Origin: Candidatus Magasanikiibacteriota bacterium
GTDB taxonomy: Bacteria > Patescibacteriota > Patescibacteriia > Magasanikbacterales > UBA922
NCBI GenBank assembly: GCA_018061685.1
Contig: JAGOTR010000003.1
Location: forward strand, 1 to 51,247
Reading direction: 5' to 3'
Length of the DNA: 51,247 nucleotides
Shown: piece after piece, positions 1 to 12,413 of the stretch
Numbering within the stretch: the first letter of the stretch is position 1
Layout: every line of letters begins with the position of its first letter
Made by a program: the position numbers and the translations under genes
The notes under the pieces: generated by a model
Seen by the model: the letters and a program-made list of their open reading frames with translations, nothing else
Databases searched by the model: none
What the model was told of the DNA's origin: nothing

Positions 1-329
1 GGAATGTCGGTGACTTGCCAGAGGATGAGAAAGAACAGTGATCCTCCCCCACACAGGAGGTCTCGTTTTTTGATTTCCTCCTCACCTTTCCACAGAGCGA
101 GCAAAAAAATAATGCCCGGGCCGATGGTGTACATGGCAATCAAGAGCGCTGCCCCCGTCATGCCGTCCGTCGCCATTTGCTCTCGATAGCTGAAGAGCAA
201 TACGGCACCATTCAGAGTGAGGGCGGCCCATGCTACACGGTTTGGTTTCAAGTCTCGGAAGAGAATATCAAAGATGTAGAAGCCAAAGGCGATAAACACC
301 AACACGCTTCCGAATGTATTCAAAGACAT
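1..329 (-). CDS. Hypothetical multi-pass membrane protein; only the N-terminal part is in the window (gene runs off the left edge)
   Basis: Absent from the ORF track because there is no stop in the window. Hand translation of the rc from ATG at 329-327 gives MSLNTFGSVLVFIAFGFYIFDILFRDLKPNRVAWAALTLNGAVLLFSYREQMATDGMTGAALLIAMYTIGPGIIFLLALWKGEEEIKKRDLL..., 109 sense codons with no stop and several hydrophobic helices. Confidence 0.6.
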   Translation of the reverse strand, partial: MSLNTFGSVLVFIAFGFYIFDILFRDLKPNRVAWAALTLNGAVLLFSYREQMATDGMTGAALLIAMYTIGPGIIFLLALWKGEEEIKKRDLLCGGGSLFFLILWQVTDI

Positions 330-552
330 GGTTTTCTCCGTACGGAAATGTCCGTGATTGTGTCTGCTATATATATCATGCAAAACGTGTTTTGTCTAAC
401 ATTTGTTATGTATGTGCACCCTCTCCACAGAAATATATTGCTGGGCTATTTGAGCTTTTTTTCAAAATACGCTATACTCATTTTTATAGAGAGTGTCTCT
501 CTCACTTGAACACAAAAAGTATTCTTTCTTTTGCTATTTTATTTTTTTATCT

Positions 553-1026
553 ATGTTTCAAAAAAATACCCAACAACCACAAGAACAATATGTACACGAA
601 GACGTCGGCCGTGATGAGGTAGAAACCGTCGTTGGTCCTTCGGTGCAAGTAGAAGGGGATTTTGCTTCAGAAGGAAATATTATTGTAAAAGGAACCGTAT
701 CTGGAAGTGTGAAAACCAGTCGGTTACTTCGGGTAGAACCAGGGGCAAAAATTTTAGCAAATGTAAAAGCAAATGAAGCTATTATTGCTGGGCAAGTAAA
801 AGGCGATGTTCGTGTATTGAACACACTTGAACTCACTGAAACAGCACAAATTTTAGGAGACATTACTTGTAGTGTGTTGGCTGTTGCTGCAGGAGCACTC
901 GTTGAAGGAAAGGTAAGTATGAAAGGAATTGATATTCAAGATAATAAACCTATCAAAAGAAGAGGGCTTAGTCGTATCAAACAAAGCACGGGAGAAGACG
1001 ATCATGACGAATCTGAATCTATGTAA
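553..1026 (+). CDS. Bactofilin-family (DUF583-type) polymer-forming cytoskeletal protein
   Basis: ORF 493..1026. An internal ATG at 553 (MFQKNTQQ...) is the likelier start, since 493 is GTG inside an AT-rich spacer. Repetitive beta-helix pattern VEGDFASEGNIIVKGTVSGSVK...ILANVKANEAIIAGQVKGDVRV...ILGDITCSVLAVAAGALVEGKVSM followed by an acidic tail. Confidence 0.8.
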   Translation: MFQKNTQQPQEQYVHEDVGRDEVETVVGPSVQVEGDFASEGNIIVKGTVSGSVKTSRLLRVEPGAKILANVKANEAIIAGQVKGDVRVLNTLELTETAQILGDITCSVLAVAAGALVEGKVSMKGIDIQDNKPIKRRGLSRIKQSTGEDDHDESESM

Positions 1027-1052
1027 TCCTCCGCGAGAAGATCCCGCTGCCT

Positions 1053-1814
1053 ATGTACGTCTATTTGTACGATGATTATATAAAAGAAAAAAAATACGAT
1101 GTGACCATGAAAGCAATCGAAACACGATTGACAGATTTTGGTATTGCTGGTAAAATTATTCGGCTACAACAGTTTACCAATGCGGAAAGTTTGATAGAAG
1201 AAGAGGTAAAAAAAGGTGCCACCACGATTGTTATTGTGGGCAATGATCGCACGTTTGGGCAGGTATTATCACGCGCCGCAACCTGTCAGGTACTGTTTGG
1301 CTTTTTACCAGTTGGTGAAGGAAATACCATTGCAGGAGTCCTTGGTATTAAAGAAGGCGTTGACGCATGTGACATTCTTTCAAAAAGAAGAAAAGTACTT
1401 CTTGATGTGGGGTGGGTAAATAATAGATATTTTATTTCTCAACTTCACATTTATCCGCACAATATTCGTGTTGAATATGATGAGCGGTTTGCCGTGTCTT
1501 CCAAAAAAAATAAAATGGAATTGGTGGTGTGTAATTTACAACCATTTGTTTGGAAGGCTCGTGGCAGAAAAGAATATGTGATTCACCCACAAGATGGAAA
1601 GCTTGAAGCATTTTTGCGACCATTACAAAAGAAAACATTGTTTCAAGATTTGTACGAAGAACCCAGTGTGTTTCCATTTGAAGAAATGATTGTGACAAGT
1701 GCAACGCCATTTGTAATGGAAGCTGATGGGAAAAGAACAAAAGAAATTAAAGTGGTCATTCGACTCGCAAAAAAACGAGTGGAAATGATTGTTGGAAAAG
1801 AGAGAAAGTTTTAA
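1053..1814 (+). CDS. Diacylglycerol-kinase-catalytic-domain (YegS/BmrU-like) lipid kinase family protein with a degenerate motif
   Basis: 253-aa ORF. TTIVIVGNDRTFGQVLS aligns with the GGDGT nucleotide-binding loop of DAGK_cat proteins, and GFLPVGEGNTIA resembles the (L)P.G(T/S)(G/A)N motif. Confidence 0.55.
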   Translation: MYVYLYDDYIKEKKYDVTMKAIETRLTDFGIAGKIIRLQQFTNAESLIEEEVKKGATTIVIVGNDRTFGQVLSRAATCQVLFGFLPVGEGNTIAGVLGIKEGVDACDILSKRRKVLLDVGWVNNRYFISQLHIYPHNIRVEYDERFAVSSKKNKMELVVCNLQPFVWKARGRKEYVIHPQDGKLEAFLRPLQKKTLFQDLYEEPSVFPFEEMIVTSATPFVMEADGKRTKEIKVVIRLAKKRVEMIVGKERKF

Positions 1815-1838
1815 ATTCCCGTCTTCGCCTGCGGGCTA

Positions 1839-1858
1839 CCTGCCTGCCGGCAGGCAGG
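1839..1858. repeat. Perfect 20-bp GC-rich palindrome CCTGCCTGCCGGCAGGCAGG (copy 1 of 3)
   Basis: Read directly. It lies just after the stop of the 1053..1814 gene and could also act as its terminator hairpin. The same core recurs at 2552-2568 and 2965-2984. Confidence 0.85.
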
Positions 1859-1944
1859 CGCCGGGCAAGTTCTTCTTTACAAATTTTTATCTACACCCTA
1901 TGTGCTTTTGTGAGAGTGTATAGATGTGTATGTAATACACTAAG

Positions 1945-2027
1945 GCTCAGATGGCGGAATGGTATACGCGCATGCTTGAGGTGCATGTGGGGGCAACCCC
2001 GTGGAGGTTCAAGTCCTCTTCTGAGCA
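1945..2027 (+). tRNA. tRNA-Leu, anticodon GAG, class II (long variable arm), no encoded CCA
   Basis: Acceptor stem GCTCAGA/TCTGAGC plus discriminator A. D arm GCG-GAATGGTATA-CGC. Anticodon stem CATGC/GCATG with loop TTGAGGT (anticodon GAG). Variable-arm hairpin GGGG-GCAA-CCCC. T arm GGAGG-TTCAAGT-CCTCT. Confidence 0.85.
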
Positions 2028-2140
2028 CGCGAAAAATGGCGCAAGCCATTTAGAGCGTCACGTGATGACCGATAGGTCATTTTACGTGACGAGGTGAGGG
2101 TAATTAAACGAAAGGCGCCATCTCGCGGCACAGCACGAAT

Positions 2141-2172
2141 AAAAAAACTCCGATAGTATCGGAGTTTTTTTT
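2141..2172. terminator. Bidirectional intrinsic terminator shared by convergent tRNA-Leu and rnpB
   Basis: AAAAAAA-CTCCGATA-G-TATCGGAG-TTTTTTTT: a 9-bp stem flanked by an A-run on one side and a T-run on the other. Confidence 0.75.
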
Positions 2173-2911
2173 GTTCATAGCAGTGTAAGCCGAATTTTGT
2201 ATCCTTTGAGCAGAGCTCTCGGGACTTGATCATTTATCTTGTTCACGTATTACTACGTGACTCCAGCGAGCGAACTTTTCCAGGGCTTCGCTTCCGCTAC
2301 GCTACAGCTACGCCCTGCAGGCATGGCACATGACACGTGTATGAGTGTGAATCAATCATACACCTGTCGGGCCTGCCCGGCGTAGCCGGAGCGCAGCGGA
2401 GGCGAAGCCAGGGCTGCTCTTGCTCTCAGTAGGGTTTACCACGCCGCGCTGTCACCAGGCGGCGAGCGTTGTCGCTTTTTCTCTCGAGAGGAAAAAACGT
2501 CAATGCACTTTTCACCTTTCGTCTTGCGCAGCAAGACGACCCTGAGCGAACGCCTGCCGGCAGGCAGGACGTGAGTCGAAGGGTATAATGGTAATTCTCA
2601 CAAAAATAATCTTCGGCGTATGGTGGATAGTATCCAGTATACTCTGCTATCCATCTTCACGCAGATGCTTTTGGTTAGAATTACACTCATCATACCCTTC
2701 GACTTCAGTCGGCTGCGGCCTCCTTACGCTCAGGGTAATTTTGCTGCGCAAAATTAGTATTGTCTCTGTGGCACTGTCCCGCCTGTATACTTTGCAGTAT
2801 ACGGGGGTGGGTGTTACCCACTACCATGCTACCTTAGGCAAATGCCAGGGGAGAGTTCGGACTTTCCTCATCTCGACGTAAAGTCGTGACGCGATCAAGA
2901 CTGATATGAAC
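2173..2911 (-). ncRNA. rnpB: RNase P RNA, bacterial type A, with two large helical expansions (about 739 nt)
   Basis: Minus-strand reading shows the universal elements. P4 5' strand GAGGAAAGUCCGAAC (rc of 2855-2869). ACAGUGCCACAGAGACA (rc of 2761-2777). GAAAGGUGAAAAGUG (rc of 2506-2520). GGUAAACCCUACUGAGAGCAAGAGC (rc of 2416-2440). P4 3' strand ACAAAAUUCGGCUUAC (rc of 2185-2200). P1 pairing GUUCAUAUCAGU (rc of 2900-2911) with ACUGCUAUGAAC (rc of 2173-2184), 11 of 12 bp. Ends are good to about +/-10 nt. Confidence 0.85.
2552..2568. repeat. GC-rich palindrome copy 2 (GCCTGCCGGCAGGCAGG, left arm shortened), inside the rnpB expansion
   Basis: Read directly. It shares 16 of 20 nt of the core with copies 1 and 3. 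Confidence 0.8.
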
Positions 2912-2964
2912 GAGAGAAATATACAGTGGAAAGAGAGTGTTGTCAACCCGGCTTCACTTCGTTA

Positions 2965-2984
2965 CCTGCCTGCCGGCAGGCAGG
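2965..2984. repeat. Perfect 20-bp GC-rich palindrome CCTGCCTGCCGGCAGGCAGG (copy 3), centre of a longer hairpin
   Basis: Identical to copy 1 including the flanking TA. Outer arms GTCAACCCGGCTTC (2942-2955) and GAAGTCGGGTTGAC (about 2999-3012) pair with one G-U, giving a hairpin of about 70 nt between rnpB and the sugar transferase gene. Confidence 0.85.
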
Positions 2985-3060
2985 AAGCGGAGCCGGACGA
3001 AGTCGGGTTGACCAAAGTAGTATTTTTTCGTATTATGAAGCTAGAATATCTTTATTTTTT

Positions 3061-4479
3061 ATGAAACGATTTGAACTTATTTTATTATTTTTGCACGTCC
3101 CGATTGATTTTATTTTATTGCTCTTGGCAGCAATAAGTGCGTATGTGCTTCGAGCTTCGGATTTTGTGGTTGGGGTAAAACCCATTTTATTTGATATTAC
3201 ATTTTCTGAATATTTTTCTATTGCTCTTTGGGTGAGTGTCGCATGGATTGCTATTTTTGCTCTCGCGGGCCTCTATAGCCCGGTTGCTTCTCGACGGTTT
3301 GCTACCGATATGGTGCGTATTTTTTTTGCGACCGCAACAGGATTGGCGGGCATTGCATTGTATATGCTGTTCACGCAACAATTATTTGATTCTCGTTTTT
3401 TGGTTGCTGCGAGTTGGGGATTTGCACTTATCTATGTGATTCTTGGGAGACTCGTCGTGCGTGGTATAAAGGGTATTTGCTATCGTGCGGGGATTGGTCT
3501 TCGGTCTCTTGTTATTATCGGTGACGATAGTATCGCATCTGAATTAGAAAACGTGCTCAAAACAAGAAAAGAATTAGGCAGACACGTTATTGCGAGATTT
3601 TCTCATTTTACTCGTGAGGCACAAAAGTACATGGATGGTGTCACAATCGATGAGGTACTTATGACAAATCCTCGTGGAAATGAAGAAGAAACGCTCAAGC
3701 TCCTCGACTATGTGCAATCACGTCATATTGCGTTTCACTATTCGGCAGACTTGTTTGCCACTATTGCTGCCAACACGAGTGTCCACCCGTTAGCAGGAAT
3801 TCCTATTGTAGAAATAAAGCCCACGCGACTTGAGGGGTGGGGAAGAATTTTGAAACGATTGTTTGATATTGTGCTGAGCGTGATTGTCCTTGTGGGAGGC
3901 ACACCATTTTTTCTTATTGTTGCCCTTGGTATTTTAATAGAAACGGGTCGACCCGTGATTTATAAAAACGAACGAGTGGGCGTTCGTCGAAAATATTTTT
4001 TTCTGTATAAATTTAGATCTATGTATCAAGCTGATTCTACCGGCCCACAGTTTGGTGCATCAGGTGACGTGGCTTTAAAAAAAGAGGCGGCTCTTATTAA
4101 AAAACAAAATGGGCGAAAAGGACCCATTTATAAAGTACACAACGATCCTCGAGTAACACGATTTGGTAAATTTTTACGTCGGTGGAGTATTGATGAGTTT
4201 CCCCAATTTTGGAATGTCCTGTGTGGCACTATGAGCGTGGTTGGCCCACGTCCACATCAACCGCGTGAAGTATCGCTGTATGAAAAAAAACATGGATTAG
4301 CATTTAACGTGAAGCCCGGCATTACCGGATTATCACAAATTTCTGGCAGAAGTGATTTGTCGTATGAAGAAGAAATGCGACTCGATATTTTATATATTGA
4401 AAAATGGAGTTTGTGGCTTGATGTGATTATTGTGGTGAAGACGCCGTTTTTATTGTTTAAGAAAAGAAAGGTGGAGTAA
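3061..4479 (+). CDS. Undecaprenyl-phosphate sugar phosphotransferase (WbaP/ExoY-type bacterial sugar transferase)
   Basis: ORF 2926..4479 trimmed to ATG 3061 (MKRFELILLF...), because the upstream 45 codons cover the GC palindrome and the rnpB flank. N-terminal TM helices. C-terminal hallmark KRLFDIVLS...PVIYKNERVG...FFLYKFRSM...DPRVTRFGKFLRRWSIDEFPQFWNVLCGTMSVVGPRP...KPGITGLSQI. Confidence 0.9.
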   Translation: MKRFELILLFLHVPIDFILLLLAAISAYVLRASDFVVGVKPILFDITFSEYFSIALWVSVAWIAIFALAGLYSPVASRRFATDMVRIFFATATGLAGIALYMLFTQQLFDSRFLVAASWGFALIYVILGRLVVRGIKGICYRAGIGLRSLVIIGDDSIASELENVLKTRKELGRHVIARFSHFTREAQKYMDGVTIDEVLMTNPRGNEEETLKLLDYVQSRHIAFHYSADLFATIAANTSVHPLAGIPIVEIKPTRLEGWGRILKRLFDIVLSVIVLVGGTPFFLIVALGILIETGRPVIYKNERVGVRRKYFFLYKFRSMYQADSTGPQFGASGDVALKKEAALIKKQNGRKGPIYKVHNDPRVTRFGKFLRRWSIDEFPQFWNVLCGTMSVVGPRPHQPREVSLYEKKHGLAFNVKPGITGLSQISGRSDLSYEEEMRLDILYIEKWSLWLDVIIVVKTPFLLFKKRKVE

Positions 4480-4491
4480 TTATTTCATGGC

Positions 4492-4516
4492 AACATGGAG
4501 CATGGAACATTGAACA
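4492..4516. repeat. Left inverted repeat flanking the four-helix-bundle gene
   Basis: AACATGGAGCATGGAACATTGAACA. Its rc, TGTTCAATGTTCCATGCTCCATG, recurs as two overlapping pieces at 4913-4941. Confidence 0.7.
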
Positions 4517-4523
4517 CAAATAT

Positions 4524-4903
4524 ATGGGAGGGGATTTGCGTATACAAGAGAGGTTTCATGATAAGCTGAAGCGTTTGATTCATGAGTATGTTTTGTTAAC
4601 ATATACACTCACAAAAAAGTATCCCAATGAAGAACGATATGGGCTTATATCTCAAGACCGACGAGCATCTTTATCTATTATGTTGAATTATGTGGAAGGA
4701 TATGGAAGAATGAAAGACGGTGTAAAGAAAAATTTTTATGAAATTTCTTTTGCATCTTTAAAAGAATCCATTTATTGCAAGTATATTGCATTGAATCAAA
4801 ATATATAACAAAAGAAGAGTATATTTCTCTTTTTACTTTAAAACAAAAAATCGGAGCAATGCTTTTTTCTACTATTGCAAGTATAAGTAAAAAAAGTGAG
4901 TAA
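4524..4903 (+). pseudogene. Four-helix-bundle protein (23S rRNA intervening-sequence protein / Avd-like family), split by a frame change near 4800-4808
   Basis: Frame 0 (4524..4808) reads GDLRIQERFHDKLKRLIHEYVLLTYTLTKKYPNEERYGLISQDRRASLSIMLNYVEGYGR...FASLKESIYCKYIALNQNI-stop. The expected family C-terminus continues in the -1 frame from 4808 as TKEEYISLFTLKQKIGAMLFSTIASISKKSE-stop (TAA 4901-4903). The switch falls in the run CAAAATATATAA. Confidence 0.7.
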
Positions 4904-4912
4904 CACAATCGG

Positions 4913-4941
4913 GTTCCATGCTCCATGTTCAATGTTCCATG
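4913..4941. repeat. Right inverted repeat flanking the four-helix-bundle gene
   Basis: GTTCCATGCTCCATG followed by TTCAATGTTCCATG, both complementary to parts of 4492-4516. Confidence 0.7.
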
Positions 4942-4943
4942 AT

Positions 4944-6068
4944 ATGAAAATTGCCTTAGTTCACGACTACCTTTCTCAAGATGGGGGGGCCGAAAAAGTG
5001 TTGCATGCCTTTCATGAAGTATGGCCTGATGCCCCTATTTTTGTGTTGTTTTATGATGCAAAAAAAATTTTAGGATTTGAGAATGCTGATATTCGTGAAT
5101 CATTCTTAGCTAAGCTGCCTTTGGGCAAGAAAAAATATCAGTGGTATATTTCACTCATGCCGCTTGCGACAGAAAAACATAATTTGCATGAATTTGATGT
5201 GGTACTCTCTTCAACGAGTGCCTTTGCAAAAGGCGTACTCACTCGGCCAGACACATTGCATATTTCATACTGCCATACACCCACGCGATATTTATGGACC
5301 GATACGCATGAATATATTGCCGAATTAAAATATAATAAATTGGTGAAAGCAGCACTCCCAAAATTGATTCATAAACTTCGTATGTGGGATAAAATGAGTG
5401 TTGACCGTGTTGATCATTTTATTGCTAATTCAAATACCGTGCGACAACGCATTCAAAAATATTATCGACGAGAAAGTGATATTATCTACCCGCCAGCCGA
5501 TGTGCATGCATTTTCTGTGGCCGAACACCCGCAAGATTATTTTATTTCAGGTGGCCGATTGGTGCCGTATAAACGATTTGATATTTTGGTGCAAGCGTTT
5601 AATCGATTGCGATTGCCGCTGGTTATTTTTGGCTCAGGCCCCGAACTTGCACGACTCAAAAAAATGGCAAAGCCAAATATTCGGTTTGTGGGGCGTGTCA
5701 GTGATAGTGAAAAAGCAACACTGTTACAGCATGCCCGTGCTTTTTTGCATCCGCAGGTAGAAGATTTAGGTATTACCCCAATTGAATCCATGGCAAGCGG
5801 CACGCCCGTGATTGCCTATGGCGTAGGGGGAGCAACCGAAACCGTGATACCGGGCAAAACCGGCGTGTTTTTTTACGAACAAACGTGGGAATCGGTAGTG
5901 GATGTGGTGCTCAATTTTGAGGATGATGCATGGGATAGAGATGATATTGCCAAACATGCACAAAGTTACGGTTTGGTTGGTTTTAAACACAAAATAAAAA
6001 CATACGTTGATGAACGCTACGAAGAGTTTCAAAAAGGGTTGAATCAATGTCAATTAAACATTCGATAA
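4944..6068 (+). CDS. Glycosyltransferase family 4 (group 1)
   Basis: ORF 4896..6068 trimmed to ATG 4944 (MKIALVHDYLSQDGGAEKV...), because upstream codons lie in the inverted repeat. C-terminal EX7E region HPQVEDLGITPIESMASGTPVIAYGVGGATETV. Confidence 0.85.
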   Translation: MKIALVHDYLSQDGGAEKVLHAFHEVWPDAPIFVLFYDAKKILGFENADIRESFLAKLPLGKKKYQWYISLMPLATEKHNLHEFDVVLSSTSAFAKGVLTRPDTLHISYCHTPTRYLWTDTHEYIAELKYNKLVKAALPKLIHKLRMWDKMSVDRVDHFIANSNTVRQRIQKYYRRESDIIYPPADVHAFSVAEHPQDYFISGGRLVPYKRFDILVQAFNRLRLPLVIFGSGPELARLKKMAKPNIRFVGRVSDSEKATLLQHARAFLHPQVEDLGITPIESMASGTPVIAYGVGGATETVIPGKTGVFFYEQTWESVVDVVLNFEDDAWDRDDIAKHAQSYGLVGFKHKIKTYVDERYEEFQKGLNQCQLNIR

Positions 6069-6078
6069 ATTTTTGTGT

Positions 6079-7227
6079 ATGCGTATTGCAATTGACATTC
6101 GATCACTCGCACAACCAGAATGTACCGGCGTGGGTGAGTATACGCGTGAATGTGTGCGTGCATTGGTAAAAAAAAAAATGGATCACAAGATCTATTTATT
6201 TTATTCGGGCTTGCGTACTCTTCACCTCCCATTTGTGTTACCACAGGGTGTTGAGTTGATTCATACCAAGTGGCCAAATAAAGTATTTCATGCTCTTGTT
6301 TTTTTGCGTTTTATTTGTGTGGATCGGCATATTGAAAAAAGAATGAAGCTCCAAAAAAAATTGGATGTATTTTTTTCACCCAATAGTCATTTTACGCATG
6401 TGTCACACGACGTTCGTGTTGCACTCACGATTCATGATCTTGCCTCGGTGTTGTACCCCGAAACATTTTCACTCAAGCGTCGATTGTGGCACGCGTTACT
6501 TGGGGTAAAAAAACAGGTGGATCGTGCGGACATTATTTTTACGCCATCAGAACACACGAAGCGTGATGTGTGCCGAGTTTTTTCTATTGCAAAAGAAAAA
6601 GTGCATGTGGCGTATCCTGGTATTTCTGATTTGTTTTTGGATACCACACCTGGCCTGCAAAAAGAACAATCACAGGTACAAGAAAAATATAGCTTGCAGT
6701 TTCCGTATATATTTTTTTTAGGAACATTAGAGCCACGGAAAAATGTGGGTACCCTTATTGATGCGTTTGTTCTTTCGGGGTTACGAGAAAAAGGATACAC
6801 CTTACTTTTGGCGGGTGGAAAGGGGTGGAAATCACGGGGCCTGTTACAAAAAATTACGAATACAGCAGGGGTGCGATATATTGGCTATGTGCCGCGACAA
6901 GAAAAACGTGCCTTGTATTCACTTGCACGGGTATCGGTGTACCCCAGCACCTACGAAGGGTTTGGGTTTCCGCCACTTGAAGCAGCGTCGTGCTCTACTG
7001 CGGTTGTTGCAAGCAATGTATCGTCACTCCCCGAAGTATTGGGTGGTGGGGCGTATTTGGTGAATCCACACAGTGTGGCAGACTTGGCCACTGGCATGGT
7101 GCGTGTGGCAGAGGACGATACGTTGCGACAGTTATTGATTCAAAAAGGGAAAGCCGTAGCGGCGGGGTATAGGTGGCAGCGGATGGTGGGTGAGGTGGTG
7201 AGGGTGCTTGAAAGGCTTCCTGAATAA
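6079..7227 (+). CDS. Glycosyltransferase family 4 (group 1)
   Basis: ORF 6073 (TTG) trimmed to ATG 6079 (MRIAIDIRSL...). Motifs FFLGTLEPRKN and PSTYEGFGFPPLEAASCSTAVVASNVSSLPEVLG. Confidence 0.85.
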   Translation: MRIAIDIRSLAQPECTGVGEYTRECVRALVKKKMDHKIYLFYSGLRTLHLPFVLPQGVELIHTKWPNKVFHALVFLRFICVDRHIEKRMKLQKKLDVFFSPNSHFTHVSHDVRVALTIHDLASVLYPETFSLKRRLWHALLGVKKQVDRADIIFTPSEHTKRDVCRVFSIAKEKVHVAYPGISDLFLDTTPGLQKEQSQVQEKYSLQFPYIFFLGTLEPRKNVGTLIDAFVLSGLREKGYTLLLAGGKGWKSRGLLQKITNTAGVRYIGYVPRQEKRALYSLARVSVYPSTYEGFGFPPLEAASCSTAVVASNVSSLPEVLGGGAYLVNPHSVADLATGMVRVAEDDTLRQLLIQKGKAVAAGYRWQRMVGEVVRVLERLPE

Positions 7228-7249
7228 TCAAGGTATTCTTTTTTAGAAG

Positions 7250-7276
7250 ATCGCTCCTGTACGGGCGATTTTTTTT
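7250..7276 (+). terminator. Weak intrinsic terminator after the GT4 gene
   Basis: ATCGC-TCCTGTACGG-GCGAT followed by T8. The stem is only 5-6 bp. Confidence 0.35.
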
Positions 7277-7291
7277 GTGGGTGGAGGAGGA

Positions 7292-7320
7292 TTGACAAAG
7301 TATGCAAAGTGTGGCAACCT
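7292..7320 (+). promoter_or_regulatory. Candidate sigma-70 promoter of island gene 1
   Basis: Perfect -35 TTGACA (7292-7297), 17-nt spacer, weak -10 CAACCT. Confidence 0.35.
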
Positions 7321-7417
7321 CACCTGTTCTCTGCATGGGTGTGCAGGGGATTTTTTACAATTCAAATTCAGGATACATGATCCTGAGGCGCCCGTGGAAG
7401 GGCAGAAGGAACGTTCC

Positions 7418-9115
7418 ATGAACAGTAATAAGACTCTCGGAGAAAAGTCTCGCACTGCGGCGTGGAGCGTGGCCTATGCTCTTTCGCAGATCGTGCTTTT
7501 CCCATTCTACCTTTTGAGCGAGGTCGTGCACCAGGTGATCGTTGGGGTGTTTCAAACCCTGACGCAGACCTCGGTGTCGGTCTGGCAGCTCAAGGTGCAC
7601 GGCGAAACTCTGTATACCCCGCGTGCTGCCGTGTGGATCGGCAGCGCAGGCCTGCTCCTCTCGGTCATGGCCGTGGTGGAGCTTTTGTGCTGGGGCTGGC
7701 TGTTTCAGCCCATGATGGCGTACGCCGAGCCAATCCTCGGCATGTCGCCCACGGTCATGGCTGCTCTCATGATGGTGAGCTTCACGACGCTCATCATCTT
7801 GGTGGATCGGCTCATCCTCATCGCCGACAGCGTGGCGAAGTCATTTTTGACGGCTGTCGCAAGTGTCGGCGTGCGTGTTGCTATGATCGGCATTACCACC
7901 GCCATCATGGCCGAGCCGGCCACACAGGCTATGTTGGCTGGGCAAATTCAGGAGCATTTTGCCGCACAAGAAAGTGCCGTGCGGCAAGTGGCAATCGCAC
8001 AGGCGACCGCCAAAATTCAAGAAACCTCCGCCGTGGCGATTGACGCTGCGGACAAGCGGACGGTGACTGGAATTGCGGCTGTGCGGGTGAGCGTGAGCAC
8101 TGCTGGCCCCGAGGCTGATAAGGCCTGGGCTCGTTTGTGTATGCGTTGCCTCGATATCGCCAAGTGCGATAGTGCTCTGTACCGCAACGCCAAAGGCGGT
8201 GCATGCCCCGTACCAAGCCGTTCTCGTGGGGCTGCTGCCATTCGGCGTGATCTGAATGAAAAAATTGCAGCAGCCGATGCTGCGATTGCCGCTGCAACGC
8301 AAGGATCCGTTGATGCCCAGCTTGCCCAAGGCCGTGCGGTTGGGGAGGAAAACAACGGTCACGTCCGGTCTCTCGAGGCCAAACGTGATGCCGAGATTGC
8401 GGCTCTCGGTACCCTCACCACGCAAAGCCTGATCGAAAAATACGGCCTTGAACTGGTGGTGCCCCGCAACGACTTTGCGGGGCGAGTGCTGGCGAAGAGC
8501 GCTGTCATTAGCCAAACCCCCGAGTTTGGAGTGCTCAACACTATTGGGCATCTCATTTTCGTTCTGTTTGGCTTTGGTGTGCTCCTCTTCAAGTACGGCC
8601 TCATGCCGGTTGAATCACGCCTGTACTACTCGCTCAAGGCGCAGATGGCCACTGGCAACCCTGACGTGCTATCACTCCGACCCGCCTTGCGGGCTATTGG
8701 CGAACTTCCTCGCGAGGAAACTCACGAGGGGGTGGAAGATGCACTGCATCGCCACCTCGTCAATCTGCTGACACAGCATGCATTGCTGGTCGATCGGTTG
8801 GCCAGCAACTTTGCCCCGCCGCTTGATGATCGCAAGGCACAGGTGGAGCAGCACTGGACGCAGTACCTCTTGCCCCAGCTTCGGCTGTATCAGGGGTACA
8901 TCGCTCAGACTGGTAACAGCCACAGCTGGCCCGACGGGTATGCTGAAGCACTGGGTTTCACCCCAGAGCAAAAGCAAGACCCTTTCATGGGCCAGGCCGA
9001 GCGGTTCACTGTGGAGCAGTCGATTGTGGCAGTGCCTCCTCCACAAGAGGAACGTGCGCCACTGGCACGGGTTGTTGATTTTTTTCGGGGAGGCCGTTCT
9101 TCCCCGCGTTCTTGA
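7418..9115 (+). CDS. Island gene 1: polytopic membrane protein with a central Ala-rich coiled coil (possibly DUF4407-like; unverified)
   Basis: ORF 7277..9115 trimmed to ATG 7418 (MNSNKTLGEK...), preceded by GAAGGA 7 nt upstream. About four N-terminal hydrophobic helices (e.g. AAWSVAYALSQIVLFPFYLL, VWIGSAGLLLSVMAVVELLCWGWLF). An Ala/Gln-rich helical stretch QAMLAGQIQEHFAAQESAVRQVAIAQATAKIQE...AADAAIAAATQ. A further TM helix IGHLIFVLFGFGVLLFKYGLM, then a soluble tail of about 150 aa. Stop is TGA. Confidence 0.7.
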   Translation: MNSNKTLGEKSRTAAWSVAYALSQIVLFPFYLLSEVVHQVIVGVFQTLTQTSVSVWQLKVHGETLYTPRAAVWIGSAGLLLSVMAVVELLCWGWLFQPMMAYAEPILGMSPTVMAALMMVSFTTLIILVDRLILIADSVAKSFLTAVASVGVRVAMIGITTAIMAEPATQAMLAGQIQEHFAAQESAVRQVAIAQATAKIQETSAVAIDAADKRTVTGIAAVRVSVSTAGPEADKAWARLCMRCLDIAKCDSALYRNAKGGACPVPSRSRGAAAIRRDLNEKIAAADAAIAAATQGSVDAQLAQGRAVGEENNGHVRSLEAKRDAEIAALGTLTTQSLIEKYGLELVVPRNDFAGRVLAKSAVISQTPEFGVLNTIGHLIFVLFGFGVLLFKYGLMPVESRLYYSLKAQMATGNPDVLSLRPALRAIGELPREETHEGVEDALHRHLVNLLTQHALLVDRLASNFAPPLDDRKAQVEQHWTQYLLPQLRLYQGYIAQTGNSHSWPDGYAEALGFTPEQKQDPFMGQAERFTVEQSIVAVPPPQEERAPLARVVDFFRGGRSSPRS

Positions 9116-9137
9116 TTCACCCCACCAAAAAATTCTC

Positions 9138-9173
9138 GGGAGTCTCTCACTTTGGCCAAGTGACGAGACTCCC
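9138..9173 (+). terminator. Hairpin without a U-tail after island gene 1
   Basis: GGGAGTCTC-TCAC...GTGA-C-GAGACTCCC: 9 + 4 bp, followed by ACCCCCC rather than a T-run. Confidence 0.45.
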
Positions 9174-9233
9174 ACCCCCCACAAGTCGCGTGATTTTTTT
9201 AAAATCGTGCGTTTTGATAAGGGGGTTTTTTTA

Positions 9234-9263
9234 TTGACAAAAAGTCTATTTTCTGCATTAAAT
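9234..9263 (+). promoter_or_regulatory. Candidate promoter of island gene 2 (TTTTTTTATTGACAAAA module)
   Basis: -35 TTGACA (9234-9239), 18-nt spacer, -10 TTAAAT, with a T7 run immediately upstream. Confidence 0.45.
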
Positions 9264-9303
9264 AGTGCATCGGAATCATCCGATAAAAACATAGGAGTTT
9301 GTC

Positions 9304-9987
9304 ATGGAAATTTTGTGGGTTTCCAAGTCTCATGAGCCACCTCTTCCCATTCAAATTCAGGCGCTTACCACGCTGAAGGGGCAACGACGGGTGCAGATAG
9401 ATCATCGGCACATCGAGAATGCCCAAGTGCTTGCTCGGGAATTTCGTCAAGGGGGGTATGGAGACCTGGTGTGCATAGCTCCTCAATCGGTGATGGCGCG
9501 GATTACACAGGAAGGGGTTCATCCTCTCCGCCCGTGTATGACCTATACCGCCCCCACGATCGGAGGTCGGCGTGCACCGGACTTGCGGCTTCCAAACGGC
9601 AACTTTTGGTTTAGTCACTTTGAGCGAGTAGAAAAAGTTGCGCTCAATCTGGTTGCCGTGCATCCAGCCACTGATGTGCGTCGAGTGTTGCGAATCACGC
9701 GACACCTATTGCAACGACCCGAAGAAGCGGCACTGAAACACGTGTTTGGTCCTCGCGTGGTGATTGAAACGTTGCAACCCACTGAATCATCTATGAGCGC
9801 TGAGTGGGTGATTCAACAGGCAAATCAATACCGTGCCACAGAGGTGGTGTTGGTAGCCCCGTGGGCAGTGTATAAGTTTTTGGCAGAGCGCGGCTGCTTT
9901 GCCTTATATTCACAGTTTGACCCGGCCAATCGGTTTGTGGCTCTGTGGCGCTGTTTGGGCGTTGAGGAACGCGTGACCCGCGTGTAA
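9304..9987 (+). CDS. Island gene 2: unknown protein, paralogue A, internally duplicated alpha/beta unit
   Basis: 227-aa ORF with AGGAG 6 nt upstream of the ATG. Clearly paralogous to 10203..10892 through shared blocks: LW.S, HI.NAQ.LAR.FR..GY.DLVCI.P..VM, PDL, WF, RVLRITRH, AL...FG, IET, VVLVAPW.V.K.LA.RG, LY.Q.D...RFVALWRC.G. Confidence 0.75.
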   Translation: MEILWVSKSHEPPLPIQIQALTTLKGQRRVQIDHRHIENAQVLAREFRQGGYGDLVCIAPQSVMARITQEGVHPLRPCMTYTAPTIGGRRAPDLRLPNGNFWFSHFERVEKVALNLVAVHPATDVRRVLRITRHLLQRPEEAALKHVFGPRVVIETLQPTESSMSAEWVIQQANQYRATEVVLVAPWAVYKFLAERGCFALYSQFDPANRFVALWRCLGVEERVTRV

Positions 9988-10002
9988 CTGGAGGGTGTAT
10001 TG

Positions 10003-10038
10003 TGATGAGGAAAGAGAGCCGTTCAGCTTTCCTCATCA
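10003..10038 (+). terminator. Hairpin without a U-tail after island gene 2
   Basis: TGATGAGGAAAG-12 nt-CTTTCCTCATCA, a perfect 12-bp stem. Confidence 0.45.
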
Positions 10039-10094
10039 CATATACCAAATAATATACCAGCACGTTCGTTCATGCTTTTAGATTTTTTTATACA

Positions 10095-10119
10095 CCTTGC
10101 TTTGCCAAGGCTTTTTTTT
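10095..10119 (+). terminator. Short hairpin plus T8 run just before the next promoter
   Basis: CCTTG-CTTTGC-CAAGG-C-TTTTTTTT. The stem is only 5 bp. Confidence 0.35.
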
Positions 10120-10120
10120 A

Positions 10121-10149
10121 TTGACAAAATATATCTTTTCTTGTATGTA
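10121..10149 (+). promoter_or_regulatory. Candidate promoter of island gene 3 (TTTTTTTTATTGACAAAA module)
   Basis: -35 TTGACA (10121-10126), 17-nt spacer, -10 TATGTA. Confidence 0.4.
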
Positions 10150-10202
10150 TATATCCTTCAGCATTCTTTTGTTTTTTCAAAAAAACCAACGGAGAAGAAT
10201 CC

Positions 10203-10892
10203 ATGAACGTTTTGTGGGGTTCACAACGACGAGGACCTGTGCCTGCTGAAATTGCTGCAATCAAGGCAATCTTTGGTACTGCTGTCCGCATCCATGAACA
10301 GCATATTCCAAACGCGCAAAATTTGGCACGCACATTTCGGCGTGAGGGGTATACTGATCTAGTATGCATTGTGCCCGATGCTGTGATGGGGCATATTTGT
10401 GAACAAGGTCTGCGTCCATTGGTCCCTGTTTTGACTTCTAGTACACAGGGAATTCGACAGCCGGACTTGGTAGATAAACATACGAATATGTGGTTTGACC
10501 GATTTGTTCGTATGAAAGAAGTGTCATTGATACTTCGGCCTGTTGAACGGCGGACCGATGTCACCCGTGTGTTGCGGATTACGCGACATGCTGTATCTCG
10601 AGAAGAACGAGATGCACTGCGGGGACTGTTTGGTGATACCATCCAGATTGAGACGATTTCTGGTGAGGACGCCTTTCTCGATGCTGGATATGTGGTAGCC
10701 AAAACACGGCAGCATGGTGCACAAGATGTTGTCTTGGTTGCACCGTGGGTTGTGTTTAAGAGCTTGGCCACTCGCGGCTATTATCCACTGTATGTGCAGT
10801 GTGATGATACTGGCCGTTTTGTTGCTTTGTGGCGATGTTATGGCTTGAAACAGGTGAGCATTTCGATCACCGACCCGCCGGATACTCGCTAG
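10203..10892 (+). CDS. Island gene 3: unknown protein, paralogue B of 9304..9987
   Basis: 229-aa ORF with GGAG 8 nt upstream of the ATG. Paralogy as described for gene 2. It looks less GC-rich than paralogue A (by eye). Confidence 0.75.
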   Translation: MNVLWGSQRRGPVPAEIAAIKAIFGTAVRIHEQHIPNAQNLARTFRREGYTDLVCIVPDAVMGHICEQGLRPLVPVLTSSTQGIRQPDLVDKHTNMWFDRFVRMKEVSLILRPVERRTDVTRVLRITRHAVSREERDALRGLFGDTIQIETISGEDAFLDAGYVVAKTRQHGAQDVVLVAPWVVFKSLATRGYYPLYVQCDDTGRFVALWRCYGLKQVSISITDPPDTR

Positions 10893-10904
10893 GTAGGAGT
10901 GCTT

Positions 10905-10935
10905 GGTGGAAGAGTTTGCTAAAAACTCTTCCACC
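10905..10935 (+). terminator. Hairpin without a U-tail after island gene 3
   Basis: GGTGGAAGAGTTT-GCTAA-AAACTCTTCCACC, a perfect 13-bp stem. Confidence 0.45.
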
Positions 10936-10970
10936 ACACAAACGTATTGGATTCAATATAACAATAATAG

Positions 10971-10993
10971 AAAGACTTGAAAGGTCTTTTTTT
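10971..10993 (+). terminator. Short hairpin plus T-run just before the next promoter
   Basis: AAAGAC-TTGAAAG-GTCTTT-TTTT. Confidence 0.4.
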
Positions 10994-10996
10994 GTA

Positions 10997-11025
10997 TTGA
11001 CAAAAATAGGTATGTAGTATATTCT
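10997..11025 (+). promoter_or_regulatory. Candidate promoter of island gene 4 (TTTTTTTGTATTGACAAAA module)
   Basis: -35 TTGACA (10997-11002), 17-nt spacer, -10 TATTCT. Confidence 0.45.
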
Positions 11026-11102
11026 CGAGTGCTCTCCACAGGTCTGTGGCAGAGTGAAACTTCAGAATTGGGGTACACACACCCCAAGAAAGGAAAAAAG
11101 CC

Positions 11103-11498
11103 ATGAATTGGCTTACGTATATGTTGTTCGGTTTGTTTCTCCTTGTGGCGGGTTGTGGGGGAACCTCTCTTCGGCCGGAACCACAGTGGGATCGAGGGAT
11201 CGCCTACCACCAGGACGATCGCGCTGCCGGGCAGCGCGAGCACGACATCAGCAACTATCCCGATCAGGCGGGCTTCCAGGCCCGGCTGGCCGCCCATGTG
11301 TCGGCCGTCAACCGGGTCAACGCAGGAGGAGAAGCGCCGCCGTGCTTTGGCAACTGGTGCCAAGGCAAGGCTTACTCTTCCGAGGCACTCCTCACGGGCA
11401 ACCTGATTTACGCGTTTTGTTTGCGAGATCAGCGCTTCCCTGAAGATGTTTGTCGGCGTGAAGCGAAGGGGCGGGCGGACGGCATTGGCGTCAAATAG
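11103..11498 (+). CDS. Island gene 4: small lipoprotein with four additional Cys
   Basis: 131 aa with AAGGAAA upstream of the ATG. Signal peptide MNWLTYMLFGLFLLVAGC has a canonical lipobox (V-A-G-C). Mature part has CFGNWC and FC...VC pairs. Preferred over overlapping frames 11054..11443 and 11143..11406, which lack start signals. Confidence 0.7.
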   Translation: MNWLTYMLFGLFLLVAGCGGTSLRPEPQWDRGIAYHQDDRAAGQREHDISNYPDQAGFQARLAAHVSAVNRVNAGGEAPPCFGNWCQGKAYSSEALLTGNLIYAFCLRDQRFPEDVCRREAKGRADGIGVK

Positions 11499-11543
11499 GT
11501 CGAGGATTTGAGGTAGGATTGCCTCTGCCCTCGTGAACATCGT

Positions 11544-11579
11544 GGTCCCCGCATTTTTGAAATACAAAATGCGGGGGCC
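11544..11579 (+). terminator. Hairpin without a U-tail after island gene 4
   Basis: GGTCCCCGCATTTT-8 nt-AAAATGCGGGGGCC, about 14 bp. Confidence 0.45.
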
Positions 11580-11605
11580 TCAAAACAACCGGTTGAGTAT
11601 AGGTA

Positions 11606-11632
11606 AAAGACTTTTTGTAAGAGTCTTTTTTT
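11606..11632 (+). terminator. Short hairpin plus T-run
   Basis: AAAGACT-TTTTGTAAG-AGTCTTT-TTTT. Confidence 0.45.
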
Positions 11633-11672
11633 ATTCCGTTCATGTTCCCTATTCTAGGGGGAGGGTTTTACC

Positions 11673-11701
11673 TTGACAAATTATTCAAAATCCGCTAGGC
11701 T
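11673..11701 (+). promoter_or_regulatory. Candidate promoter of island gene 5
   Basis: -35 TTGACA (11673-11678), 17-nt spacer, -10 TAGGCT. Confidence 0.35.
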
Positions 11702-11783
11702 GGGCTACTCCTTTGCGTGCAGTACGCAGTAAGGAGAATTCACAACGTGGGTCTGGGAGACCCCAAAAAAAGGAGAGTGCCGT

Positions 11784-12251
11784 ATGGAACGGCTCAGCAT
11801 GTGGTTTTTGTTTCTGTTCGGTTTCTTGACCGTGGGCTGCGGCGCACAGCCGGTCAAGATTGAGTACGTCCCGTGCCAGATGTGCCCGGCGGGCGTGGGA
11901 CTCGAGCGGGCCCATAAGCCTGTGGTCGAGAAGGACCAGTGTCCTCCCGCCGCGCAGAGCGCCTTCGGAACCAAGCAGGGGGCTCTCGCGGGACGGCTCT
12001 CGGAGGCGATCGCCGATCGCCCGGTTAATCGGGAGAACGGACCGACAGCGTGGATGCCTGTGTCCATGGCGCCCACTTCGCATCATGAGGTCCTGGTCAT
12101 GGGCCTCAAGGAGGCGAAGGACTGCCTCAAGAGGCAACGTGAAAAGGGGCGCAAGGTGACCCAGGCGGTGATCGAGTGGTGCAACCGTATCGCCCGACTC
12201 ACCGACGACGGGAAGCGCGTCCGACCGGAGGCCATGACTCCGCCCGACTGA
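11784..12251 (+). CDS. Island gene 5: lipoprotein with several Cys and a basic C-terminal helix
   Basis: 155 aa with AGGAGA 7 nt upstream of the ATG. Signal peptide MERLSMWFLFLFGFLTVGC (lipobox-compatible). Cys residues at VPCQMCP, DQCPP, KDCLK and EWCNR. Stop is TGA. Confidence 0.65.
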   Translation: MERLSMWFLFLFGFLTVGCGAQPVKIEYVPCQMCPAGVGLERAHKPVVEKDQCPPAAQSAFGTKQGALAGRLSEAIADRPVNRENGPTAWMPVSMAPTSHHEVLVMGLKEAKDCLKRQREKGRKVTQAVIEWCNRIARLTDDGKRVRPEAMTPPD

Positions 12252-12270
12252 CGCACCACCCTGAACCTTT

Positions 12271-12316
12271 GAATCACTCCAGATTTTTGCCCTAGGCAAC
12301 TATTCTGGAGTGGTTC
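12271..12316 (+). terminator. Long hairpin after island gene 5
   Basis: CACTCCAGA (12275-12283) pairs with TCTGGAGTG (12304-12312). Outer GAA/TTC extends the stem. The loop is 20 nt. Confidence 0.4.
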
Positions 12317-12347
12317 AACAATATCTTCGAAATTTGTTTGTATGTGT

Positions 12348-12370
12348 ATCTCTTAATAGAGATTTTTTTT
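12348..12370 (+). terminator. Intrinsic terminator closing the island
   Basis: ATCTCT-TAAT-AGAGAT followed by T8. Confidence 0.5.
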
Positions 12371-12413
12371 ATATATACAATTTTTTAATACGCCATGATA
12401 CACTGATGGGTAT

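Follow-up and report, generated by a model that had tools for sequence, protein, structure and literature searches.

An RNase P RNA gene of 741 nt with two helical inserts in a Candidatus Magasanikbacteria genome

Bacterial RNase P RNAs are usually about 330–480 nt long, and the 741-nt rnpB gene analysed here falls outside the usual class-A length. It lies in a 51,247-nt stretch of DNA (hereafter, the window; contig JAGOTR010000003.1 of assembly GCA_018061685.1) from an uncultured species of Candidatus Magasanikbacteria, within the Candidate Phyla Radiation (CPR; Patescibacteria), as indicated by the neighbouring genes, which match Magasanikbacteria genomes best. How has an essential ribozyme come to be about twice its ordinary length, and does the gene still work? 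We consider it probable that this is a working rnpB expanded by insertions of palindromic repeats, in which the expansion of helix P12 has been retained and constrained, whereas that of P16/17 is a tolerated hairpin that turns over rapidly.

The 741 nt are identical in an independent assembly by the Joint Genome Institute (L032). Single Logan contigs from two further sequencing runs span 2107–2977 and 2107–2700, with uniform depth and no mismatch, and the sequence is present in wastewater, freshwater and sediment metagenomes. For comparison we used a second population, represented by a Logan contig found via the 90 per cent protein cluster of the neighbouring sugar transferase (L035); L038, the nearest sister species found (70 per cent protein identity in the sugar transferase); and relatives from a scan of metagenome contigs for a lineage-specific rnpB pattern (27 loci, 25 of them complete).

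The rnpB gene: core, extent and signals

The family model RF00010 (RNaseP_bact_a) matches the minus strand at 2170–2910 with 110.8 bits (E = 3.9e-33, cmscan; gathering score, 100 bits). The alignment spans the whole model (positions 1–367 of 367), and the type-A model scored best within its clan. The original prediction, made from the bare sequence and its open reading frames (ORFs), had placed a type-A RNase P RNA of about twice normal length, with all core elements on the minus strand, at 2173–2911. Class, length and completeness of the core are borne out by the full-length match and by the conserved blocks readable in it; the exact ends are not. Alignment of the core to the covariance model, set beforehand as the test of that prediction, succeeded end to end. 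The gene and its signals comprise the following features.

2170–2910, minus strand: rnpB, bacterial type-A RNase P RNA, 741 nt (full RF00010 model; identical in L032)
2858–2869, minus strand: block of the P4 5' strand, GAGGAAAGUCCG (model alignment, direct reading)
2186–2200, minus strand: block of the P4 3' strand, ACAAAAUUCGGCUUA (model alignment)
2918–2946, minus strand: sigma-70-type promoter, TTGACA-17-TATATT (11 of 12 consensus matches; both hexamers identical in L035)
2141–2171, no strand assigned: perfect hairpin of 15 bp between runs of A and T, a bidirectional intrinsic terminator (inverted repeat 2141–2155/2157–2171, 100 per cent complementary; identical in L035)
1945–2028, plus strand: tRNA-Leu(GAG), convergent with rnpB, no encoded CCA

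All universal RNase P blocks were found, namely GAGGAAAGUCCG, ACAGARA in J11/12, GGUGAAA in J12/13 and ACANAANNCGGCUUA. The conserved blocks that can be read in the gene are GAGGAAAGUCCG (2869–2858), CCACAGAGACAAUAC in J11/12, GGUGAAAAG in J12/13, GGUAAACCC, GAGCAAG, AGAUAAAUG and ACAAAAUUCGGCUUA (2200–2186). On direct reading, AAG(U)CCGAA of the 5' block pairs with UUCGGCUU of the 3' block to form the P4 pseudoknot. The type-A helices P13, P14 and P18 were all aligned by the model, P18 being CACGUAGUAAUACGUG with the loop GUAA. Relative to the model, the RNA carries insertions of 17 nt between P5 and P7, about 11 nt in P9, about 200 nt in P12 and 8 nt near the 3' end, while P13 measures 43 nt instead of 17 and P15–P17 measures 143 nt instead of 43. 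Without its two large inserts the gene is 411 nt long, an ordinary size, as had been predicted from a slightly lower figure of about 409 nt.

The promoter places the transcript start at about 2910, and the terminator is common to rnpB and the convergent tRNA-Leu gene. Eight ORFs of at least 40 aa overlap rnpB, where three spurious ones had been counted, and those tested have no Pfam match. Two ORFs were considered as genes and rejected: a 31-aa ORF on the RNA strand of the P12 insert (no domain, poor ribosome-binding-site spacing) and a 97-aa antisense ORF (no Pfam match, poor ribosome-binding-site spacing). The automatic gene calling of the public assembly puts a 52-aa gene over the 5' end and promoter of rnpB (2906–3064, equal to 3658–3816 of L032). 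The 517-aa GTG-start ORF of the sugar transferase (2926–4479) extends into a palindromic element, and a 472-aa form starting at 3061 fits the relatives. Genes such as this rnpB fall near the Rfam detection threshold, and gene callers cover them with spurious ORFs.

Position, distribution and divergence of the two inserts

The excess length resides in two helical inserts, one in P12 and one in the P15–P17 region, at the positions originally predicted (2540–2735 and 2280–2413). The model alignment agrees with these positions, and the stems named in the prediction reappear both as inverted repeats and in the minimum-energy fold.

2524–2751, minus strand: whole P12, 228 nt, predicted four-way junction (inverted repeat 2524–2559/2716–2751; z = -12.0; 86 predicted pairs)
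2540–2735, minus strand: P12 insert, 196 nt, closed by ACCCUGAGCG/CGCUCAGGGU (model alignment and fold; 73 predicted pairs; 50 per cent G+C)
2574–2704, minus strand: AT-richer hairpin within the P12 insert, 131 nt (50 predicted pairs, with an uninterrupted run of 17; 40 per cent G+C)
2280–2413, minus strand: P16/17 insert, 134-nt rod hairpin (54 predicted pairs; 63 per cent G+C)

The minimum-energy fold of P12 uses the stems CCCUGAGCG/CGCUCAGGG and GUCGAAGGGUAU.../...AUACCCUUCGAC, and the insert contains a 17-nt inverted repeat (2574–2590/2688–2704, 94 per cent). Predicted folding energies are -115.7 kcal/mol for the P12 region (z = -12.0) and -99.7 kcal/mol for the P15–P17 region (z = -8.5); in both cases none of 200 shuffled sequences folded as well. 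The P16/17 helix is longer than the approximately 35 bp first proposed, and the proposal that both expansions are GC-rich holds for one of them: with 50 per cent G+C in the P12 insert and 40 per cent in its inner hairpin, only the P16/17 insert (63 per cent) truly is. The inner AT-richer hairpins of both inserts are single-copy, and read depth over that of P12 equals the depth of the genome. An Rfam scan of positions 1–6000 with E-values up to 1 found no other RNA families (introns, ribozymes, HEARO) in the inserts; besides rnpB it returned tRNA-Leu and hits below threshold. A self-splicing group I or group II intron was also considered and rejected, as the permissive Rfam scan gave sub-threshold microRNA noise only and the 97-aa ORF lacks a Pfam match.

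In the 25 complete relatives, the P4 block and the 3' block are 278–477 nt apart, versus 684 nt in the window. Measured between conserved junction anchors, the P12 segment (J11/12 to J12/13) is 255 nt long here and 38–103 nt in relatives, and the P15–P18 segment is 186 nt here and 70–111 nt in relatives. The P13–P14 segment has 79 nt, and relatives have 62–90 nt. J5/7, P9 and P13 thus carry small inserts that characterise the lineage, and just the two large ones are special. One of the small ones is a hairpin that is typical of the lineage:

2835–2852, minus strand: small extra hairpin between P5 and P7 (model insert; also in L003 and L038)

BLAST searches of both large inserts against the relatives returned no similarity, and the P12 insert is absent from L038, L039, L003, L024 and about 25 other relatives. 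The gene neighbourhood of rnpB consists of a bactofilin, a protein resembling diacylglycerol kinase (DAGK-like), a polyprenyl-phosphate sugar transferase and glycosyltransferases, and gene order in L038 matches that of the window from the bactofilin through the glycosyltransferases. L038, L003 and L024 have their rnpB at the same syntenic position. The rnpB genes of L003 and L024 are 432 and 463 nt long, and that of L038 has 400 nt (155 bits), with a P12 of about 21 nt and a 17-nt hairpin at the site of the P16/17 insert, inside the same frame GAGCAGCCCU...UGGAAAAGUUCGCUC. Because the sister gene is 400 nt long and lacks the inserts, both expansions arose after the split from L038. The original prediction had regarded them as lineage-specific; judged by these comparisons, they are specific to the species, not lineage-wide.

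Among reference genomes, the closest match to the DAGK-like protein (L001) has no rnpB nearby, and L002 ends directly past the tRNA. The spacer between tRNA-Leu and rnpB varies within the lineage. In L038, positions 2340–2957 are called as a 205-aa ORF without a Pfam entry, and L003 has about 2.5 kb of extra DNA (4990–7559) between the two genes, which the window lacks.

The second population carries an rnpB of 720 nt (115.3 bits with RF00010). Its three flanking genes that were compared are 91–94 per cent identical in nucleotide sequence to those of the window, with third-codon divergence of 20.5 per cent in the sugar transferase and 15.0 per cent in the next glycosyltransferase. When the 6.8 kb that align are divided into 150-nt bins, each bin has 3–30 differences, except for 2438–2587 (none) and 2588–2737 (one). 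The P12 insert thus differs by one substitution in 196 nt, at position 2621, which is unpaired in the predicted fold; at a neutral divergence of 0.15, the probability of at most one change in 196 nt is about 5e-13. The core adjoining the insert has no changes in 126 nt on one side and two changes in 99 nt on the other. A third variant, from run X12, has a change at 2559, which is likewise unpaired, in the loop of a small palindromic hairpin. This pattern suggests either purifying selection on the P12 insert as strong as that on the core or recent short-tract recombination at that stretch. No other near-identical stretch occurs in the locus, so a mosaic of recent exchanges is not evident.

Elsewhere in the gene the two populations differ in ways that retain structure, most visibly in P3:

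2870–2892, minus strand: P3 hairpin (8 of 23 positions differ from L035; 9-position helix and 5-nt loop kept)

The changes in P3 comprise two double compensatory pairs, one mismatch that became a pair and one pair that became a mismatch, and the J5/7 hairpin changed from GGC/GCC to UGC/GCA, which is also compensatory. These compensatory substitutions indicate that rnpB is under selection. In place of the P16/17 insert, L035 carries a different hairpin of 111 nt (z = -6.2); the arms of the two hairpins are about 65 per cent similar in an alignment read by eye, and their interiors hardly align.

Palindromic modules in and around the gene

Parts of the inserts and of the DNA flanking rnpB belong to short palindromic modules, in line with the original suggestion that the expansions derive from a family of palindromic elements.

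2549–2568, no strand assigned: copy of a 20-nt palindrome (17 of 20 positions), a small hairpin at the P12 junction
2699–2731, minus strand: 33-nt module GAGCGUAAGGAGGCCGCAGCCGACUGAAGUCGA, multi-copy in metagenomes (on other contigs with different flanks in runs X1, X4, X8 and X12)
2373–2408, minus strand: 36-nt arm of the P16/17 insert, recurring (contigs of X12 and X8 match this stretch alone and differ in flanks)
2947–3006, no strand assigned: 60-nt palindromic element containing the 20-nt palindrome (fold z = -6.2; multi-copy depth)
2029–2140, no strand assigned: 112-nt nested palindromic element from tRNA-Leu to the terminator (fold z = -6.8; depth 5–10 times the genome's in several metagenomes)
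1820–1870, no strand assigned: GC-rich element with the 20-nt palindrome, just past the DAGK-like gene (sequence differs in variant strain L036)

Two copies of the 20-mer CCTGCCTGCCGGCAGGCAGG lie at 1839 and 2965, and a third, with three mismatches, in the P12 insert at 2549; all three fall within 1.2 kb, and no copy would be expected by chance. Depth spikes and contigs with unrelated flanks were observed at 2699–2731, 2373–2408, 2965–3008 and 2026–2131 (in at least four metagenomes), and the depth of the 33-mer rises to as much as 23-fold that of the genome. Some module-bearing contigs have a depth near this genome's, which fits copies in the same genome without proving them. The elements share terminal inverted repeats or a hairpin shape (ACCCUGAGCG/CGCUCAGGGU and CUUCGC.../...GCGAAG), with fold z-scores from -6 to -12.

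No exact match to the 33-mer was found in viral contigs. As interpretations of the 33-mer, we considered a CRISPR repeat, a hammerhead core, a fragment like the 3' end of 16S rRNA and a coding sequence, none of which fits convincingly. Its flanks elsewhere read ACUCC...GGAGU, versus ACCCU...AGGGU here, forming a covarying 5-bp closing stem. Of its two flanks on the other contigs, one (GGAGTTCAGKATCATCA) is semi-conserved and the second variable and AT-rich. The module has no Rfam match.

The three elements outside the gene differ between populations, those at 1820–1870, 2029–2140 and 2947–3006 being absent or replaced in L035. The 60-nt element fills precisely the gap that separates the -35 box of rnpB from the divergent -35 box of the sugar-transferase gene; L038 retains the empty site, at which the two boxes abut as GGTCAAC|TTGACC, and L035 has 28 unrelated nucleotides there. 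The 112-nt element exists in many variant copies, and about 45 unrelated nucleotides take its place in L035. Positions around 870–900 of L035 and 5710–5739 of L036 share the 12-mer TGTTCGCACATA, in opposite orientation, at sites where elements carrying the 20-nt palindrome stand in the window. The two populations may thus each have a small repeat family of their own at these intergenic positions. In L024 the 20-nt palindrome occurs at 1075–1125 and 1380–1430, each time fused to a partial 5' half of tRNA-Leu and downstream of the intact tRNA-Leu gene.

The insertions at the tips of P12 and P16/17 and in the promoter palindrome each appear to be centred on a pre-existing hairpin or palindrome, a pattern that we draw from these three cases. 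CCCUGG stands on both sides of the P16/17 insert, but most of it is part of the conserved frame CCCU...UGG, which is also present in L038.

Other parts of the window also stand out. A cassette of about 420 nt (4492–4941) has perfect inverted repeats of about 25–30 nt at its ends (4492–4516/4913–4941) and holds a gene (4524–4808) for a 94-aa member of the 23S rRNA intervening-sequence protein family (PF05635, E = 3.6e-17). It lies between the sugar-transferase and glycosyltransferase genes and is unaligned in L035, which suggests a small mobile cassette. The approximately 5 kb at 7277–12400 have 50–55 per cent G+C, versus 43 per cent for the window, and contain long ORFs on both strands without Pfam matches and three copies of TTTTTTTATTGACAAAA (9226, 10113 and 10989), about 880 nt apart. 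L038 has no counterpart of this region between its glycosyltransferase genes and yidC, and parts of it are found in L035. Two very large ORFs lie on the plus strand at 19513–24468 (1651 aa) and 27770–36016 (2748 aa).

Alternative explanations and comparison with known systems

In the reading that we favour, positions 2170–2910 would form a single, working rnpB whose RNA, a type-A ribozyme, removes the 5' leaders of pre-tRNAs. It would be transcribed from TTGACA-17-TATATT (2946–2918) to the hairpin terminator (2171–2141). The catalytic core (P1–P5, the P4 pseudoknot, P7–P11, J11/12, J12/13, P13, P14, P15 and P18) is ordinary for the lineage. Once the species had diverged from its closest sampled sister, palindromic DNA, part of it GC-rich modules repeated elsewhere, would have entered two apical loops, that of P12 (specificity domain) and that of P16/17 (catalytic domain). 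In the type-A structure, the tips of P12 and P16/17 point away from the face that binds tRNA (PMC4919922), so the ribozyme could tolerate rods of 196 and 134 nt at these sites. The P12 expansion would since have become constrained and may matter for folding, stability or the binding of a partner; because its sequence is kept as tightly as that of the core, it most likely stays in the mature RNA. The P16/17 expansion would be a hypervariable palindromic hairpin that is swapped between populations. We can only tentatively go further and suggest that the P12 expansion may be a new domain of the ribozyme, of recent origin and maintained by selection, built from mobile palindromic modules that insert at the apices of hairpins or palindromes.

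Several observations weigh against this account. The helices of the inserts show no covariation, and their pairing could merely reflect an origin from palindromic DNA. The conservation of the P12 insert comes from one pairwise comparison plus fragments, and a short recombination tract limited to the interior of rnpB would look alike. The score exceeds the RF00010 threshold by just 10.8 bits, with relatives at 154–170 bits, a deficit that we attribute to the inserts. The GGU motif of L15, which is typical but not universal, pairs with the 3'-CCA of tRNA; here the 3' side of L15 reads AAAAGUUC and the motif is missing. As for transcripts, searches of RNA-run indexes with rnpB and groEL gave no run with this sequence, and five RNA runs aligned to the region yielded nothing or the RNase P core of another organism. 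The modules recur on other metagenome contigs that are not placed in the same genome, and within the window each is single, except for the 20-mer. No clear target-site duplication was found at P16/17 and none was seen at P12. The ORFs scanned in the 51-kb window include no domain of a transposase or of a transposase associated with repetitive extragenic palindromic (REP) sequences (RAYT).

What else could explain such a gene? An assembly artefact, in which repeats were mis-joined into rnpB, could be suspected from the short-read contigs that break at the flanking repeats (2107 and 2977), yet the independent assembly, the spanning Logan contigs and a diverged population with the same architecture leave this explanation with almost no credibility. 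We also regard it as very improbable that the locus is a pseudogene disabled by repeat insertions, with another rnpB copy or a protein-only enzyme maturing the 5' ends of tRNAs. The barely sufficient score and the missing L15 motif would fit a pseudogene, as would the fact that the window is only part of the genome. Against these stand intact core blocks with every model position matched, a conserved promoter and terminator, the compensatory changes in P3 and J5/7, the location at the syntenic rnpB site and the status of the RNA as the most conserved stretch of the locus. The missing motif also agrees with the CPR pattern, as the UGG/GGU CCA-binding motif has been lost in 23 of 35 CPR genomes (PMC8172020), and the tRNA-Leu gene of the window encodes no CCA.

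Two further explanations concern the fate of the inserts. Should they behave like the intervening sequences of rRNA, RNase III would cut the rods without re-ligation, and the ribozyme would consist of two or three pieces of RNA held together by the remaining helices. Both inserts are indeed extended stem-loops that replace the tips of conserved helices, as in rRNA; they contain long stretches of nearly perfect duplex (an unbroken 17 pairs in P12, a predicted 54 in P16/17), are sporadically distributed among close relatives, and sit where a break would presumably spare the core. Moreover, CPR rRNA genes are described as rich in insertions (PMC11270868). Excised spacers, however, usually evolve freely, whereas the P12 insert, including its loops, has been kept as well as the core, and we judge excision unlikely. 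That we know of no report of a fragmented bacterial RNase P RNA also counts against it; if the rods were excised, this would be the first. Alternatively, the P12 insert may be neutral baggage whose near-identity stems from recent recombination within rnpB, both inserts then being tolerated selfish palindromic DNA, an explanation that is compatible with a functional gene. Divergence is uneven and could mark a recombination boundary: P3 and the J5/7 hairpin have 12 changes in 62 nt, versus a single one in the 417 nt of 2414–2830. The P16/17 insert and the three flanking palindromic elements have been gained, lost or swapped between populations. On the other hand, the 6.8-kb locus has no other near-identical stretch (the lowest count elsewhere is three differences in 150 nt), the conserved block coincides with a functional RNA, and both substitutions seen in the insert (2621 and 2559) fall at unpaired positions. 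Neutral baggage kept near-identical by recombination is, in our assessment, an improbable explanation.

A working gene with a constrained P12 expansion and a tolerated P16/17 expansion would imply that a type-A core can accommodate about 330 additional nucleotides when they extend two helix tips, and that two fates of an insert exist side by side, one frozen by selection and the other turning over rapidly. If the P12 expansion is indeed a new domain maintained by selection, the RNA would possibly be the largest bacterial RNase P RNA and may represent selfish DNA in the process of being domesticated into an essential RNA. The locus could also serve as a test system for the origin of expansion segments from repeats, for the tolerance of a ribozyme to peripheral RNA and for the trimming of inserts in CPR bacteria as in rRNA.

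RNase P RNAs from circularised CPR genomes are known to have large helix extensions (for example, an extended P15), to miss helices and to score below Rfam thresholds (Lui et al. 2021, PLoS Comput Biol, PMC8172020), so helix extensions as such are already known in this group. The gene described here shares with them the superphylum, the type-A framework, the helix extensions, a weak RF00010 score and the loss of GGU. It differs from them in its doubled length, in being extended at two sites at once (196 and 134 nt), in the link to repeats and in the comparison between populations. New are the length of 741 nt (about double), the two expansions together, their dating by a syntenic 400-nt sister gene, the link to multi-copy palindromic modules, and the constrained P12 expansion versus the swapped one in P16/17.

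Short tandemly repeated repetitive (STRR) sequences, which are tandem heptanucleotides, are said to have been described by Vioque, in a 1997 work that PMC2858038 cites, in P12 of the RNase P RNAs of heterocystous cyanobacteria, where they reportedly lengthen this helix modestly. As in that case, genomic repeats occupy P12 of a type-A RNA, a tolerant helix that is dispensable in part, and the RNA lacks the CCA-binding motif. In contrast to the cyanobacterial repeats, the P12 insert is a 196-nt palindrome with a four-way junction and is accompanied by a second insert in P16/17.

The inserts also resemble rRNA intervening sequences: in both cases an essential structural RNA has conserved helices whose tips carry an extended stem-loop. 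Most insertions in the rRNA genes of CPR bacteria look like group I introns and often encode homing endonucleases (PMC11270868), whereas the inserts in rnpB have no match to an intron model and no ORF with a known domain. Like REP sequences and miniature inverted-repeat transposable elements (MITEs), the modules are short, GC-rich, hairpin-forming and apparently multi-copy, vary in presence and absence, and lie near terminators and promoters. REP sequences and MITEs are normally extragenic, whereas here modules lie inside a ribozyme gene, and no transposase, RAYT or clear target duplication was found among the features examined. The nuclear RNase P RNA of Candida glabrata, about 1.1 kb long, has a conserved core and peripheral helical insertions that are retained in the mature RNA. 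It is of the eukaryotic type with many protein subunits, has an unrelated origin and shows no link to repeats, but in both RNAs the core has been kept while peripheral helical insertions multiplied the length.

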